Below are positions 45,235 through 49,983 of a DNA stretch of 64,000 bases, piece after piece. Position numbers and translations under genes: made by a program. Source of the stretch: Thermoplasmata archaeon (GTDB lineage Archaea > Thermoplasmatota > Thermoplasmata > Lutacidiplasmatales > UBA184); contig JAJYXQ010000081.1 of assembly GCA_021796385.1 (NCBI GenBank), forward strand, positions 1,377 through 65,376, written 5' to 3'. Each line of letters starts with the position of its first letter. The first letter of the stretch is position 1. Under the pieces are notes generated by a model. That model did no database searches, was not told the DNA's origin, and saw only the letters and a list, made by a program, of their open reading frames with translations.

Positions 45235-48200
45235 GTGATGAACAGGGCGCATCTCCGCTGGCGGCCCCGATTGGCGGCGGTCTTCGTCCTTTTGTCTTTG
45301 CTCCTCTTGCTGTTTGCCGTCCCCGGCCTCCCCGCCGGGATCGCATTGGCCAGTTCAAACGCTCCCAACCCGTGCGGACACATCCTGAGGGCCGCGAACG
45401 GTACGGCCGGGCCCGAGGTGGAATGCTTCCTGAACGCGACCGCCGGTTTAACCTTCGACCCGAACCAGCTTGTAGTACCAGCAAATTCCACCATAGTGTT
45501 CCACGTCGGGGATGTGGGTGGTATCCCCCATACCTTCACCTTGGATAACGTTAGCAACGACTCAACCCTCGCTTCATGGACCCAAGCCCCGAACACTGTC
45601 TCCCCTGCCCAGCTCTACAAGTACTTCGCCTCGCACGAAGCAGTGAACCTCACGTTGGATGGGTCCGCGACCGGGAACACATCTTCGCCTGTGACCCTCC
45701 CGACCGCGCATGGGGTCTACTACTATGTCTGCCTTGTTCCGGGACACTTCCAGAGCGGGATGTATGGGGAACTCGTGATGGGTCTTCCCAAGCCCATTCC
45801 TTCAGTGGCCCCGACCCTCAACGTTCCCGTCCAGTTTGGGATTGTAGCCTTGGCCTTCGTCGCCCTCGCAGCCGCCGCCATCATCATATTCAATGCTCAG
45901 AGCTTCGGAGGGATTCGACGGGGCTTCGTCAAGCTCTTTGAGACCGAGCAGGCCGACCCCAACAGCCTGCGCTCCTGGCTATTCACCACAGATCACAAAC
46001 GCATAGGGATACTCTATCTTGCGACGTCCATTTTCTTCTTTTTCATGGCCGGTAGTTTCGCCCTCATGATGCGGACGCAGCTCTCGGTCCCCAACAACAC
46101 ATTTGTCAATGCTCAGGTCTACAATCAACTTGTGACGATGCATGGGCTTCTCATGGCCCTGTTCGTCCTCTCCCCGCTCGGATTCGCCTTTGCGAACTAC
46201 ATCATCCCGCTTCAGATGGGAGCAAAGGACATGTCGTTCCCCCGGCTGAATGCCCTCAGCTATTGGTTCTTCGCCTTAGGGGGCTTCCTCCTTCTTTCAG
46301 GGATATTCCTTCCAGGGGGGGCTGTCTCCTCCGGCTGGACCTTGTACGCACCGCTGAACGAGACCCCGTACCTCCCCCAGCCTGGGATGGATGTGGGTAT
46401 CCTTGGGATACTCATGCTGTGCATTTCTGTAGTCCTCGGAACCACCAACATCTTCACGACAGTGTTCCGTCAACGCGTCAAGGGGTACAAGCTCCTCGAC
46501 CTGCCGATGTTCACCTGGGGAATCCTGTTCACGCTGATCATGGCTTGGATTGCGTTCCCCGACCTCATGGCTGCCGTCGTCCTCCTCATGATGGACCGCG
46601 CCATCGGCTCAGAGATCTTCCTCGCCAACGTGGGGGGAACGCTCCTATGGCAACAGGTCTTCTGGTTCTTCGGACATCCCGAGGTCTACATTCTCATCTT
46701 TCCGGCGTTCGGGGCCATGTATGACATCGCGAGCGTCTTCTCTGGTCAACCCATCTTCGGGAAACGCTACGTGATCTACTCGATGGCCGCCATCGTGATC
46801 CTGAGCATGGCGGTCTGGCTCCATCACATGTTCATGACCGGTGTGAACCTGGGATGGATCGACTTGCAGTCGTTCACCACACAGGCGATTTCCATCCCAT
46901 CGGATACGCTCGTCCTAGGACTCATCTTCACTATGGCCGGAGGAAACATTCGGTACAAGTCCCCCATGCTTTTCACGCTGGGAGCGATCCCGCTGTTCAT
47001 CATCGGCGGCATCACCGGTGTTCTAACGGGCGTCCCGGCACTCGATGTGGGCTTCCATGGGACCTATTGGGTCGTCGGGCACTTCCATTACATGCTGGCG
47101 GGTACCGCGCTCTGGGGGCTCACCGCAGCCACATATTTCTACTATCCGAAGGTCACTGGCCGGATGCCCAACGAGAACATCGCCAAAGTCCACCTCGGAT
47201 TCGCCGCATTTGGTGTGAACATGATCTACTTCCCGATGCTCCTGCTCTACAACATGCCCCGCCGGTACTTTGTCTACTCCGCGAACTTGGGCTTCAATGA
47301 CCTCAACCTCATCTCCACCATCGGGGCGTACATCTACGCCACTGCGCAACTGATCTTCCTCGCCAACCTCCTCTATAGCTGGAAGCGGGGGCAAGTGGCC
47401 TCGCGCAACCCCTGGCAGGCCTGGGGGTTCGAATGGCTGACTTCTTCCCCACCGCCAGCGTGGAACTTCGATGGGGACCCCACCATCCGTGGCACCCGGA
47501 TGTCCGTGGAGCCTTCCATGGAGCACCCCCACCCTCCCCATCTGAGCAAGTGGCCGATGTTCGTAGGAGTGGGGTCGTTCCTTTCACTCTTCGGGCTCGT
47601 AGTGCAGCTTTACTGGGGGAACCCGATCCTCTTGGTGCTGGGGCTAGTCCTCGTCATCCTTTCGATGGCGGGTTGGGCATGGGAGGATTTTGCCGACCGG
47701 ATCCCCGAAATGGATCACGGCACCCGGGAGCTCTGGCCCTTCGGGTCGCTCTCCAATGTGCAGTTCGGCACCATCGTCTTCATCAGCGGAGACCTTGCCT
47801 TTGTGGGCGCCATGGTAGGCGCATACGCCTTCACCACGTGGCAAGCCGCGTACTTCAGCGACCCGCTCCTCTCGCTCGCCGCTTCCGGCAGCACGCTCCT
47901 CACCGAGCTCATCCTCCTTTCCTTGGTCGGCAGCATTGCCCTGGCGATGGTCGGTCTCTACGGTGCACGTTCGCGGAACCTGGCGCTCGCCGAAACTGGA
48001 ATTGTGGGTACCATCGTTCTCGGGGGCCTTTTCCTGGTGGCATCGGTCCTGAACTGGCAAACCCTCACAAATTCCGGGATGGGAATGTCCACGGTGGGGG
48101 TCAACCTCACAACCTCCATGTTCTACGATTTCTCGATCATCCACATTGTCCACGTCGTGGCGCTCATCGGGGTCATGGGGTATTTTGCCGTCCGGGTGCC

Positions 48201-48345
48201 GAAGCTCTTTGAGTTACCGGACCACTCCATGGGCCCCGATGGCAATAAGGCAGGATCCCCCTTTGATGGGTTAGCCGCCGCAACGTACCTGTGGGTGTTC
48301 ATTGCGGCCTTCGGGATAGTTTTGACGGCCGTGTTCTTGATGTGA
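45235..48345 (+). CDS. coxA: Fusion: type-1 cupredoxin + heme-copper oxidase subunit I + subunit III (A-type)
   Basis: CLVPGHFQSGM; TDHKRIG, TMHG, DMSFPRLN, WFFGHPEVY, WLHHMF, VGHFHY, MPRRY; subunit-III-like region from SKWP onward. Confidence 0.92.
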   Translation: MMNRAHLRWRPRLAAVFVLLSLLLLLFAVPGLPAGIALASSNAPNPCGHILRAANGTAGPEVECFLNATAGLTFDPNQLVVPANSTIVFHVGDVGGIPHTFTLDNVSNDSTLASWTQAPNTVSPAQLYKYFASHEAVNLTLDGSATGNTSSPVTLPTAHGVYYYVCLVPGHFQSGMYGELVMGLPKPIPSVAPTLNVPVQFGIVALAFVALAAAAIIIFNAQSFGGIRRGFVKLFETEQADPNSLRSWLFTTDHKRIGILYLATSIFFFFMAGSFALMMRTQLSVPNNTFVNAQVYNQLVTMHGLLMALFVLSPLGFAFANYIIPLQMGAKDMSFPRLNALSYWFFALGGFLLLSGIFLPGGAVSSGWTLYAPLNETPYLPQPGMDVGILGILMLCISVVLGTTNIFTTVFRQRVKGYKLLDLPMFTWGILFTLIMAWIAFPDLMAAVVLLMMDRAIGSEIFLANVGGTLLWQQVFWFFGHPEVYILIFPAFGAMYDIASVFSGQPIFGKRYVIYSMAAIVILSMAVWLHHMFMTGVNLGWIDLQSFTTQAISIPSDTLVLGLIFTMAGGNIRYKSPMLFTLGAIPLFIIGGITGVLTGVPALDVGFHGTYWVVGHFHYMLAGTALWGLTAATYFYYPKVTGRMPNENIAKVHLGFAAFGVNMIYFPMLLLYNMPRRYFVYSANLGFNDLNLISTIGAYIYATAQLIFLANLLYSWKRGQVASRNPWQAWGFEWLTSSPPPAWNFDGDPTIRGTRMSVEPSMEHPHPPHLSKWPMFVGVGSFLSLFGLVVQLYWGNPILLVLGLVLVILSMAGWAWEDFADRIPEMDHGTRELWPFGSLSNVQFGTIVFISGDLAFVGAMVGAYAFTTWQAAYFSDPLLSLAASGSTLLTELILLSLVGSIALAMVGLYGARSRNLALAETGIVGTIVLGGLFLVASVLNWQTLTNSGMGMSTVGVNLTTSMFYDFSIIHIVHVVALIGVMGYFAVRVPKLFELPDHSMGPDGNKAGSPFDGLAAATYLWVFIAAFGIVLTAVFLM

Positions 48346-48361
48346 GGATGGGAGGGAAACA

Positions 48362-49180
48362 ATGGCAGGTACAGTGAACGGAAAGGCCCGAAGGGACCTC
48401 TTGGCCGGTGGCCTCATCATGCTCGCGGCGACGCTCATCCTCCTGTGGTTCGTCGCCAATCTCTACTTCGACCGCTGGGGGATCGGCGGGTTCCAAATGA
48501 GTCCTTTCCTTCCGTACCCGGTCGTGAGCGGGCCCTCGCTCAACTATGACCATTGGCTGGGCCTGTTGCTGGTGTACCTCGCCTTCGGTATCCCGATCGC
48601 CGTGGTCGCAATTGGGGAGGTCTTCTTGGTCGCATGGAAATGGCGCGCGCGACCCGGCCATCCCGCCCCTTCAGATGGTCTCCAAGAGAATATCATCCCG
48701 ACTTCGCGCCGAGGAAAGGGGTCGCGGACTCTCCTTACCGTCAACATCCTGGTAGCCGTCCTCCTCTTCAGCCTCGCGGTCTACAGCCTACCCATCAACT
48801 CGCTTTTGCTCGGGCAGCCCCCGGACCCGCCGAACACCCTCACCGTCAGTGTGAAGGCCTTCCAGTGGGGCTGGACATTCATCTACCCCAACGGGTACAG
48901 CTCGACGGGCTCCGCCATCCTTCCGACCAACGAGGAGATCGTCTTCAAAGTCTGGAGCACCGACGTCATGCACGACTTTGCCATCCCCAGCCTCAAGGTG
49001 AAGGTTGACGCCTACCCGGACCACAACAACACCGCCTGGACCATCATCTACCAGTCGGGAAGTTACGAGGTGTTCTGCATGGAGCTCTGCGGGGTTGGGC
49101 ATGCCTACATGACCGCCACGCTGACGGCGGAGCCGCAGGCCCAGTTCGCCCAATGGTACAATTCGACCGGGACCACCTGA
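48362..49180 (+). CDS. coxB: Heme-copper oxidase subunit II with CuA centre
   Basis: AFQWGWTFIYP, STDVMHDF, CMELCGVGHAYM; GGAGG RBS. Confidence 0.93.
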   Translation: MAGTVNGKARRDLLAGGLIMLAATLILLWFVANLYFDRWGIGGFQMSPFLPYPVVSGPSLNYDHWLGLLLVYLAFGIPIAVVAIGEVFLVAWKWRARPGHPAPSDGLQENIIPTSRRGKGSRTLLTVNILVAVLLFSLAVYSLPINSLLLGQPPDPPNTLTVSVKAFQWGWTFIYPNGYSSTGSAILPTNEEIVFKVWSTDVMHDFAIPSLKVKVDAYPDHNNTAWTIIYQSGSYEVFCMELCGVGHAYMTATLTAEPQAQFAQWYNSTGTT

Positions 49181-49983
49181 AGAACGCTTTCCGGGGGGAA
49201 AACCTTCCCCTTACCGCGACCATTCTTTTCTTCTTCGCTGCCGCGGGCATTCTGATCTGGATCGCCTACGGGCAACACCTGATCTTCAACACCTTCGCGG
49301 CCGCCTCCTCGGTCGTGTTCTTCGCGGCCACATACCTCGTCCTTCGGCAGACCGTGATGAAAGGAGCGTTCGAGCGGTTCGCGCGTTATGTGCGCAGACC
49401 GGTCGGCGCAATCATTTTCGTCGGCTACCTCGCCCTCCACTACTTCCTCTACGGGTTGTTCTTGGAAAGGCTCCTCATCGGGTTCTACGGAGATGTGCCC
49501 GGTGGACCCCCCGGGGGCTCCCCGCTCTATCTCTCCACAGGTCTAGTGTATCCCGAGTTCCCCGTCGGTGGGTTCTTCAGCATCCTCTCAAACCCGTCGG
49601 TCACCCTCTACATATCCTCGAACTACGGCATCACCCTGATCCCCTTCAGCTTCTTCCTCGGGTTCCTTATCGCAGTCTTGGTGATCGCCAACATCGAAGT
49701 CGTCTCGGATGTTTCGACCTGCCCCGCTTCCCGGCGGCGTCGTGCGTACGTCGTGCTCCCCTCCCTGGGCATCGCTGTGGGTAGCTCTTGCTGCCTATCT
49801 CTTCCCGTCCTGGTGACGCTCGTGATCCCGGCGGCGGGGGCGCTCTCCTACACCACGGCCGCCTCGTACCTCGCCTTCTTCGCCTTCCCGGTCGCCACCG
49901 CGGTCGCGCTCATGTTCAATCTCGAACATTCCCGTGCGATCCTCCGGCAAGTGGCACCACGCATCCCGGGCCCCACAGGGTGA
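49153..49983 (+). CDS. Hypothetical multi-TM protein in the oxidase operon with vicinal Cys (GSSCC)
   Basis: About six TMs; STCP and GSSCCLSLP; overlaps coxB by 28 nt. Confidence 0.7.
   Translation: MVQFDRDHLKNAFRGENLPLTATILFFFAAAGILIWIAYGQHLIFNTFAAASSVVFFAATYLVLRQTVMKGAFERFARYVRRPVGAIIFVGYLALHYFLYGLFLERLLIGFYGDVPGGPPGGSPLYLSTGLVYPEFPVGGFFSILSNPSVTLYISSNYGITLIPFSFFLGFLIAVLVIANIEVVSDVSTCPASRRRRAYVVLPSLGIAVGSSCCLSLPVLVTLVIPAAGALSYTTAASYLAFFAFPVATAVALMFNLEHSRAILRQVAPRIPGPTG

Follow-up and report, generated by a model that had tools for sequence, protein, structure and literature searches.

The 64,000-nucleotide stretch of Thermoplasmata archaeon DNA analyzed here (assembly GCA_021796385.1, contig JAJYXQ010000081.1; hereafter the window) carries coxAC, a gene whose product is predicted to be an A1-type heme-copper oxygen reductase without the canonical K-channel, that is, without the equivalents of Lys354, Thr351, Ser291, and subunit II Glu78 (Paracoccus numbering). 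With a probability of roughly 60%, we favor the reading that this is a functional A1 oxidase of the "Aeropyrum / Thermoplasmatales COX13" type, in which the canonical K-pathway appears to have been lost ancestrally and the D-pathway to have been strictly conserved. An earlier note on the same DNA had described an A-type oxidase with an intact D-channel and no K-channel lysine, and had suggested a remodelled or hybrid proton pathway, possibly an adaptation to acid. Its residue assignments hold, its reading of the pathway is supported in part, and its adaptive explanation is not supported. The parts of the locus on which the argument turns are listed below by window position; residues follow the numbering of the encoded proteins, and bovine numbering is given as such.

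45235..48345, + strand: coxAC, an open reading frame of 1036 amino acids, fusing a SoxE-like cupredoxin, COX1, and COX3
46195..46251, + strand: D-channel entrance, N321, D332, and N339 (bovine N80, D91, and N98), 99-100% conserved in 134 relatives that were themselves selected by a motif including D91
46675..46725, + strand: helix VI, HPEVYILIFPAFGAMYD, with His481 (CuB ligand), Glu483 (D-channel), Tyr485 (cross-link), Phe492 (+7 from the cross-linked Tyr), Tyr496 (+11), and Asp497
46897..46911, + strand: helix VIII, PSDTL, with Ser556 (T316), Asp557 (G317), Thr558 (V318), and Leu559 (K319), by gap-free alignment to IPTGIK
47056..47061, + strand: former Mg/Mn site, with His-Asp replaced by His608-Gly609, by alignment
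48722..48742, + strand: start of the last transmembrane helix of CoxB, SRTLLTV, at the canonical E-x-x-W-T K-entrance position, by alignments

Positions 46675-46911 (+ strand) translate to HPEVYILIFPAFGAMYDIASVFSGQPIFGKRYVIYSMAAIVILSMAVWLHHMFMTGVNLGWIDLQSFTTQAISIPSDTL, residues 481-559 of the coxAC product, and read HPEVYILIFPAFGAMYD…WLHHMF…ISIPSDTL. A HMMER phmmer search against the PDB returned CtaD of M. tuberculosis and M. smegmatis (E 1e-131, vs 1e-6 for the B-type ba3 enzyme), and helices VI-VIII aligned without gaps, pairing FGIVSE of CtaD with FGAMYD, IAVPTGIK with ISIPSDTL, and, in the Mg-site region, TDSYFVVAHFHY with HGTYWVVGHFHY. Bovine S255, H256, and T316 correspond in the query to Tyr496, Asp497, and Ser556, and G317, K319, and D369 to Asp557, Leu559, and Gly609; position 322 is Gly. 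These assignments bear out the exchanges given in the earlier note, namely Lys to Leu and G317 to Asp in helix VIII, a Tyr at +11 from the cross-linked Tyr, and His-Gly for His-Asp at the Mg site. Helices VI, VIII, and IX of subunit I contain no Lys or Arg. Relocation of a Lys, Arg, or His to a neighboring helix was considered and rejected, as these three helices hold no such substitute and helix VII has only Lys510 and Arg511 at its cytoplasmic boundary.

The D-pathway is present as the earlier note had stated. Tyr261, Asn321, Asp332, Asn339, Ser342, Ser398, Asn405, and Glu483 (the Glu of HPEVY) are all kept, and the sole change, Val at bovine S157 with a Thr one turn on, is common in relatives. 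The six His ligands of the low-spin heme, the high-spin heme, and CuB (H303, H481, H530, H531, H616, and H618) are invariant in the alignments, as are the cross-link Tyr and the HPEVY motif (residues 481-485) that marks the enzyme as A1 rather than the A2 YS type, and the PRRY Arg pair is intact. An AlphaFold2 (AF2) model of residues 225-1036 (predicted local distance difference test [pLDDT] 92.7; predicted template modeling score [pTM] 0.94) matched Thermus caa3 subunit I+III (2yev_A; TMq 0.88 over 810 aligned columns) and superposed on subunit I of R. sphaeroides, P. denitrificans, and the bovine enzyme with Foldseek TMt values of 0.90-0.95 and root-mean-square deviations of 1.6-2 Å. The model shows residues 539-567, comprising helix VIII, as one unbroken helix, and the register of the sequence alignment can therefore be trusted.

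The entrance to the K-channel in subunit II is altered as well. Where three canonical controls read VEVAWT, LEILWT, and LEIMWT, the window CoxB reads RTLLTV, which agrees with the earlier note that the E-x-x-W Glu is missing, and neither the Glu nor the Trp stands at the aligned position in any of the eight clade CoxBs examined (the window protein and seven others). CoxB of this genus also has an extra N-terminal transmembrane helix (in the region 48362-48640), giving three in total where sister lineages have two.

The trait belongs to a whole clade. Relatives were gathered with HMMER, by scanning 1.8 billion cluster representatives in full, and with a word-indexed search; a scan of genome contigs with the clade alignment proved too generic, returning mostly canonical bacterial CoxA, and was used only for controls and outgroups. 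In a tree of 155 sequences built with the trait columns removed (quick LG+G4 search; support by the Shimodaira-Hasegawa-like approximate likelihood ratio test [SH-aLRT], no bootstrap), the query fell within an archaeal COX1-COX3 fusion clade with SH-aLRT support of 100, and within a Thermoplasmatota subclade of it supported at 98. All 34 rows of the fusion clade are lysine-free, and every row of the tree-defined clade has Gly at bovine 369. Its members include Aeropyrum pernix, metagenome-assembled genomes (MAGs) of Desulfurococcales and Acidilobaceae, Caldiarchaeum subterraneum, soil Thaumarchaeota/Crenarchaeota, a Halorubrum COX1-3, Candidatus Sysuiplasma, and the query genus. Between 58% and about 45% identity, all matches but one lack the lysine, Ser255, and the Mg-site Asp, and that one (P0013) lies outside the clade in the tree. 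A pattern common to the whole clade is not a chance substitution, and the tree suggests that loss of the K-pathway was a single event in the common ancestor of this clade. On whether the substitutions accompany one another in homologues, a question raised by the earlier note, the losses of the lysine, Ser255, and the Mg-site Asp do occur together clade-wide, but Tyr at 255 is confined to two sublineages. The pattern is no oddity of this gene but the standard state of a large clade with cultured, biochemically studied members (Aeropyrum pernix in the tree; Ferroplasma and Picrophilus in PMC8239418), a finding that the earlier note had itself named as a refutation. One clade member is labelled as an "Anaerolineae bacterium" MAG (P0203), reflecting either a binning error or an archaea-to-bacteria transfer.

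A wider set of 134 relatives was picked by the motif itself (Glu242, Asp91, no Lys319, no Ser255, and Gly369, in bovine numbering), such that the figures at positions 242, 91, 255, 319, and 369 hold by definition and the tree provides the non-circular support. In this set the D-channel positions are 95-100% conserved, with positions 242 and 91 so by selection, and positions 255, 316, 319, and 322 are mostly hydrophobic: 255 is Ala, Gly, Tyr, Phe, Leu, Met, or Cys (mostly Ala/Gly), 316 is Phe in 112 of the 134, 319 is Ile, Leu, Met, or Ala, and 322 is Ala, Ser, or Gly. The Mg-site His (position 368) is Arg in 110 sequences and is retained as His608 in the query. The same relatives carry polar residues that are absent from canonical A1 enzymes, at Ser313, Gln327, Tyr343, Thr403, Ser524 (134/134), and Ser553 (122/134), as well as Tyr665 and an Asp at 673 beside the PRRY arginines; these additions, with the Arg at the Mg-site His, may make up for the loss of the K-channel and the Mg site.

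Under the reading that we favor, the K-pathway would have been dismantled in the clade ancestor by replacement of the lysine with Leu, Ile, Met, or Ala, of Thr316 mostly with Phe, of Ser255 mostly with Ala or Gly, and of the Mg-site Asp with Gly, and the subunit II entrance Glu would have given way to a non-ionisable residue. The old K region would then be largely packed shut, and the D-channel would deliver, via Glu483, the pumped protons and most or all of the substrate protons; the strict conservation of the D-channel alongside a hydrophobic K region argues for Glu483 as the source of both. Any leftover delivery in the reductive phase could go by way of waters close to position 256, where the residue is invariably acidic, and Tyr496, Ser556, Asp557, and Thr558 would be lineage-specific variation of a packed region and not a replacement channel. 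Electrons would probably leave the Rieske/cytochrome b complex for the fused blue-copper domain of subunit I and pass on through CuA and the low-spin heme to the heme-CuB site.

Several observations weigh against this account. Loss of the lysine in canonical enzymes blocks reduction of the active site, and we know of no A-type enzyme in which operation by the D-channel alone has been shown experimentally. Position 256 is Asp or Glu in 134/134 of the motif-selected relatives and position 317 in about half of them (70/134), and the retention of acidic residues at these positions suggests that the K region is not simply dead. Moreover, nowhere else in its subclade is the K region as polar as in the query genus (Tyr496, Asp497, Ser556, Asp557, and Thr558), which also has a buried, genus-specific Glu in CoxB (Glu86).

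A rival proposal is that the query genus has restored proton input to the old K region without a lysine, in convergence with ba3, along a path running from an entrance at Asp497 through the Tyr496 hydroxyl, water, and Ser556 to Tyr485, and possibly helped by Asp557, Thr558, and a buried CoxB Glu86. By alignment, Tyr496 (+11) is the equivalent of ba3 Tyr248, and Ser556 occupies the position of ba3 Ser309 and A-type Thr316; the B-type K signature is Y,Y,T,S (PMC3084760; PMC8239418). The acidic residue at 256 is invariant in the motif-selected relatives. Tyr496 and Ser556 are kept in all species of the genus, as are the genus-specific Asp557, Thr558, and CoxB Glu86; the CoxB position is Glu in all four species, Trp in sister lineages, and Ala, Tyr, or Val in others. 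However, conservation of four to five residues among orthologues that are 73-88% identical is the chance expectation. Leu559 stands where ba3 has Thr312 and Phe492 where it has Tyr244, Gly occupies position 322, and subunit II lacks its entrance Glu. Since the central B-type Thr is a Leu, a ba3-like channel is weakly supported, and we consider it unlikely.

The residue combinations in neighboring lineages point the same way. Tyr at 255 occurs in only two sublineages, the query genus (FYD/SDTL) and a second Thermoplasmatota lineage (LYD/AGVL) that has Ala at 316, and sister lineages on the same scaffold replace the Tyr with Phe or the Ser with Ala: the 255/316 pairs are Tyr with Ser, Tyr with Ala, Phe with Ser (Sysuiplasma), and Phe with Thr (Ferroplasma/Picrophilus, from a published table). 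This mixture of Tyr/Phe and Ser/Ala/Thr looks more like drift or packing in a non-conducting region than like a conserved hydrogen-bonded chain. A steric "aromatic swap" was also considered, in which Phe316 would go with a small side chain at 255, and an aromatic 255 (Tyr or Phe) with a small one at 316; the raw counts are striking, yet they represent about one event and carry no statistical support. Only two changes on the tree are needed for Tyr255 and three for Phe316, too few for any statistic of co-evolution or steric exchange. A further reading, in which the genus made a dead K region polar again and added CoxB Glu86 to form a new path at the subunit I/II interface, part B-type-like and part carboxylate, seems to us a little less likely still than convergence with ba3. 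Of the hybrid pathway suggested by the earlier note, the dismantling of the canonical K-path, both within subunit I and at its entrance in subunit II, stands, as does the B-type-like character of three of the four core K positions (the cross-link Tyr, Tyr at S255, and Ser at T316), but a ba3-like channel is not supported, given the Leu for the central Thr, the Phe for the +7 Tyr, the missing subunit II Glu, and the varying residue combinations.

The suggestion that the K-channel lysine and the subunit II Glu were given up as an adaptation to very low external pH has some points in its favor. Acid mine drainage is the source both of the organism and of Sysuiplasma, its nearest relatives, and "modified" K-channels are listed for several unrelated acidophiles among the Proteobacteria and Firmicutes, including Acidithiobacillaceae and Sulfobacillus/Alicyclobacillus, and for Ferroplasmaceae (PMC8239418, Table S1). 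However, the lysine is equally missing from clade members of neutral or alkaline habitats, such as Aeropyrum pernix, Caldiarchaeum, soil Crenarchaeota/Thaumarchaeota, and Halorubrum, and the K-channel opens to the near-neutral cytoplasm rather than to the acid exterior. Because neutrophilic hyperthermophiles, soil Thaumarchaeota, and haloarchaea share the loss, it predates acidophily in this lineage, and adaptation to acid is not supported for this enzyme; we regard it as improbable. Other genera of the same family retain the lysine. These carry a different, canonical CoxA of about 565 amino acids with Ser and Lys kept and about 40% identity to the query, and for this reason the genus probably acquired its COX1-3 oxidase laterally from Sysuiplasma-like Thermoplasmatota, replacing the family type. 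On the reading favored here, the lysine-less trait reflects the ancestry of the gene and not adaptation to acid. Some family relatives have, in addition, a B-like oxidase with 25% identity, and one species of the same genus, with a 98% complete genome, has no COX1 match at all.

A further alternative is that coxAC no longer encodes a working proton-pumping oxygen reductase, being either a decaying gene or an enzyme for another substrate such as nitric oxide. A residue essential in model enzymes is gone, and no heme A synthase CtaA was detected in the 92%-complete genome with the Pfam model PF02628; the oxidase may use heme O/B, or that model may have failed to detect a short, divergent CtaA of archaeal type. 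Against this, the metal ligands, cross-link Tyr, D-channel, CuA site, and PRRY Arg pair are intact, the reading frame is free of stops in four species of the genus (orthologues intact, 73-88% identity) and in hundreds of relatives, and those relatives include the obligate aerobe Aeropyrum pernix. Furthermore, coxAC is the only heme-copper oxidase detected in its own 92%-complete genome (a single PF00115 match), in which no cytochrome bd (PF01654) was detected. With all ligands intact and no other terminal oxidase found, the enzyme must reduce O2 and carry respiration, and we rejected the idea of a pseudogene or non-oxidase, which has very little left to recommend it.

Further features of the locus are as follows. 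The COX1 domain spans residues 256-700 of the 1036-amino-acid protein (PF00115, E 2e-126), and the C-terminal extension is identified as COX3 by homologues (PF00510) and by structure comparison.

45442..45780, + strand: sulfocyanin-like type-1 copper domain, amino acids 70-182 (PF06525, E 2e-7; PF00127 sub-threshold at 20.8 bits, against a cut-off of 21.2 bits)
47539..48342, + strand: COX3-like C-terminal domain, start approximate (homologues with PF00510; model against caa3 I+III)
48362..49180, + strand: coxB, CuA subunit II, 272 amino acids, three predicted transmembrane helices (PF00116; PDB subunit II matches, E 2e-18)
48617..48619, + strand: CoxB Glu86 in the penultimate transmembrane helix (IGEVF), membrane-embedded and genus-specific
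49076..49111, + strand: CuA motif CMELCGVGHAYM, intact

Among the relatives compared, fusion of a cupredoxin and one transmembrane helix to the N terminus of COX1-COX3 is found in this genus only, whose orthologues are 1034-1041 amino acids long, vs 767-807 without the cupredoxin in the nearest lineages. A free paralogous cupredoxin gene lies upstream of coxAC in divergent orientation, and a Rieske and cytochrome b pair is encoded on another contig (C77), outside the cox operon. In the sister Thermoplasmatota lineage with the LYD motif (GCA_023379425.1), a cytochrome b gene stands directly upstream of coxAC-coxB in a SoxM-like layout. Overlapping the end of coxB is a gene for a 276-amino-acid membrane protein (49153-49983) that has no Pfam match and keeps the same position in a relative with 73% identity (281 amino acids); its product probably serves either as an additional subunit of the oxidase or in its assembly.

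A-type oxidases in which the lysine is missing and the D-channel intact amount to natural experiments on the long-standing question of why these enzymes need two proton inputs and whether the D-channel can serve the reductive half-cycle. The query gene is a clean case for this question: it is the only terminal oxidase found in its genome, and its clade has representatives in culture (Aeropyrum, Ferroplasma, and Picrophilus). What this analysis adds is the probable single ancestral loss in an archaeal clade, the lack of support for acid adaptation as its cause, and the flagging of polar changes specific to the genus.

The lysine-less COX1-3 type is already in the literature, and the query gene is a further member of it. 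Degli Esposti et al. 2021 (PMC8239418, supplementary table for Fig. S7) list the "A1 type COX13" of Ferroplasma acidiphilum and Picrophilus torridus with residues Y,F,L,T,G,D, a COX2 Phe, and a "modified" K-channel, and the tables of the same paper describe the COX13 of Aeropyrum, Marsarchaeota, and Haloarcula likewise as "modified." In the Lutacidiplasmatales paper (PMC9287336), every Thermoplasmatota coxA is termed "D- and K-channel possessing A1." This wording arises because the classifier defines type A1 by the D-channel alone (PMC3084760), and it hides the trait without contradicting it.

The query shares with the Ferroplasma and Picrophilus enzymes the A1 type with HPEVY, a full D-channel, the COX1-COX3 fusion, the Lys-to-Leu exchange, an aromatic residue at 255, an acidic 256, a non-ionisable COX2 entrance, and a blue-copper partner instead of cytochrome c. 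Compared by the published table alone, it differs in having Tyr255/Ser316 where those enzymes have Phe/Thr, and it has Asp-Thr at 317/318; its cupredoxin is fused to the N terminus of subunit I, and its CoxB has the extra transmembrane helix and Glu86. The nearest lineage outside the genus is that of Candidatus Sysuiplasma acidicola/jiujiangense from acid mine drainage (MBX8638340.1 and MBX8640242.1; 57-58% identity), which has the same Ser316, Leu319, Asp256, and x-Gly at the Mg site but carries Phe255, Gly-Val at 317/318, and a CoxB Trp at the Glu86 position in a protein of 786-801 amino acids without the cupredoxin fusion. Aeropyrum pernix belongs to the same clade (50% identity over COX1), lacks the lysine (PFEMA), and has Asp256 and a fused COX3, with Ala255 and Arg-Gly at the Mg site; it differs as a neutrophilic marine hyperthermophile with Phe316, Glu317, and no fused cupredoxin. 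The A. pernix fusion is the aa3-type enzyme that Ishikawa et al. reportedly purified in 2002.

Two further systems bear comparison with the query. The SoxM supercomplex of Sulfolobus acidocaldarius (SoxM I+III, SoxH, SoxE, and SoxF/G) is likewise an archaeal A1 I+III fusion and uses a sulfocyanin carrier, matched by the SoxE Pfam domain of the query. Its K-channel, however, keeps the Lys and Ser in the published table ("hybrid"; PMC8239418), its sulfocyanin is a separate protein, and the Rieske/cytochrome b genes of the query lie on another contig. Thermus thermophilus ba3 shares with the query the Tyr at +11 from the cross-linked Tyr, the Ser at the T316 equivalent, and the lack of the lysine, but B-type enzymes have no D-channel, and where they carry a Thr for the Lys, a Tyr at +7, and Glu15 in subunit II, the query has Leu, Phe, and no counterpart, respectively.

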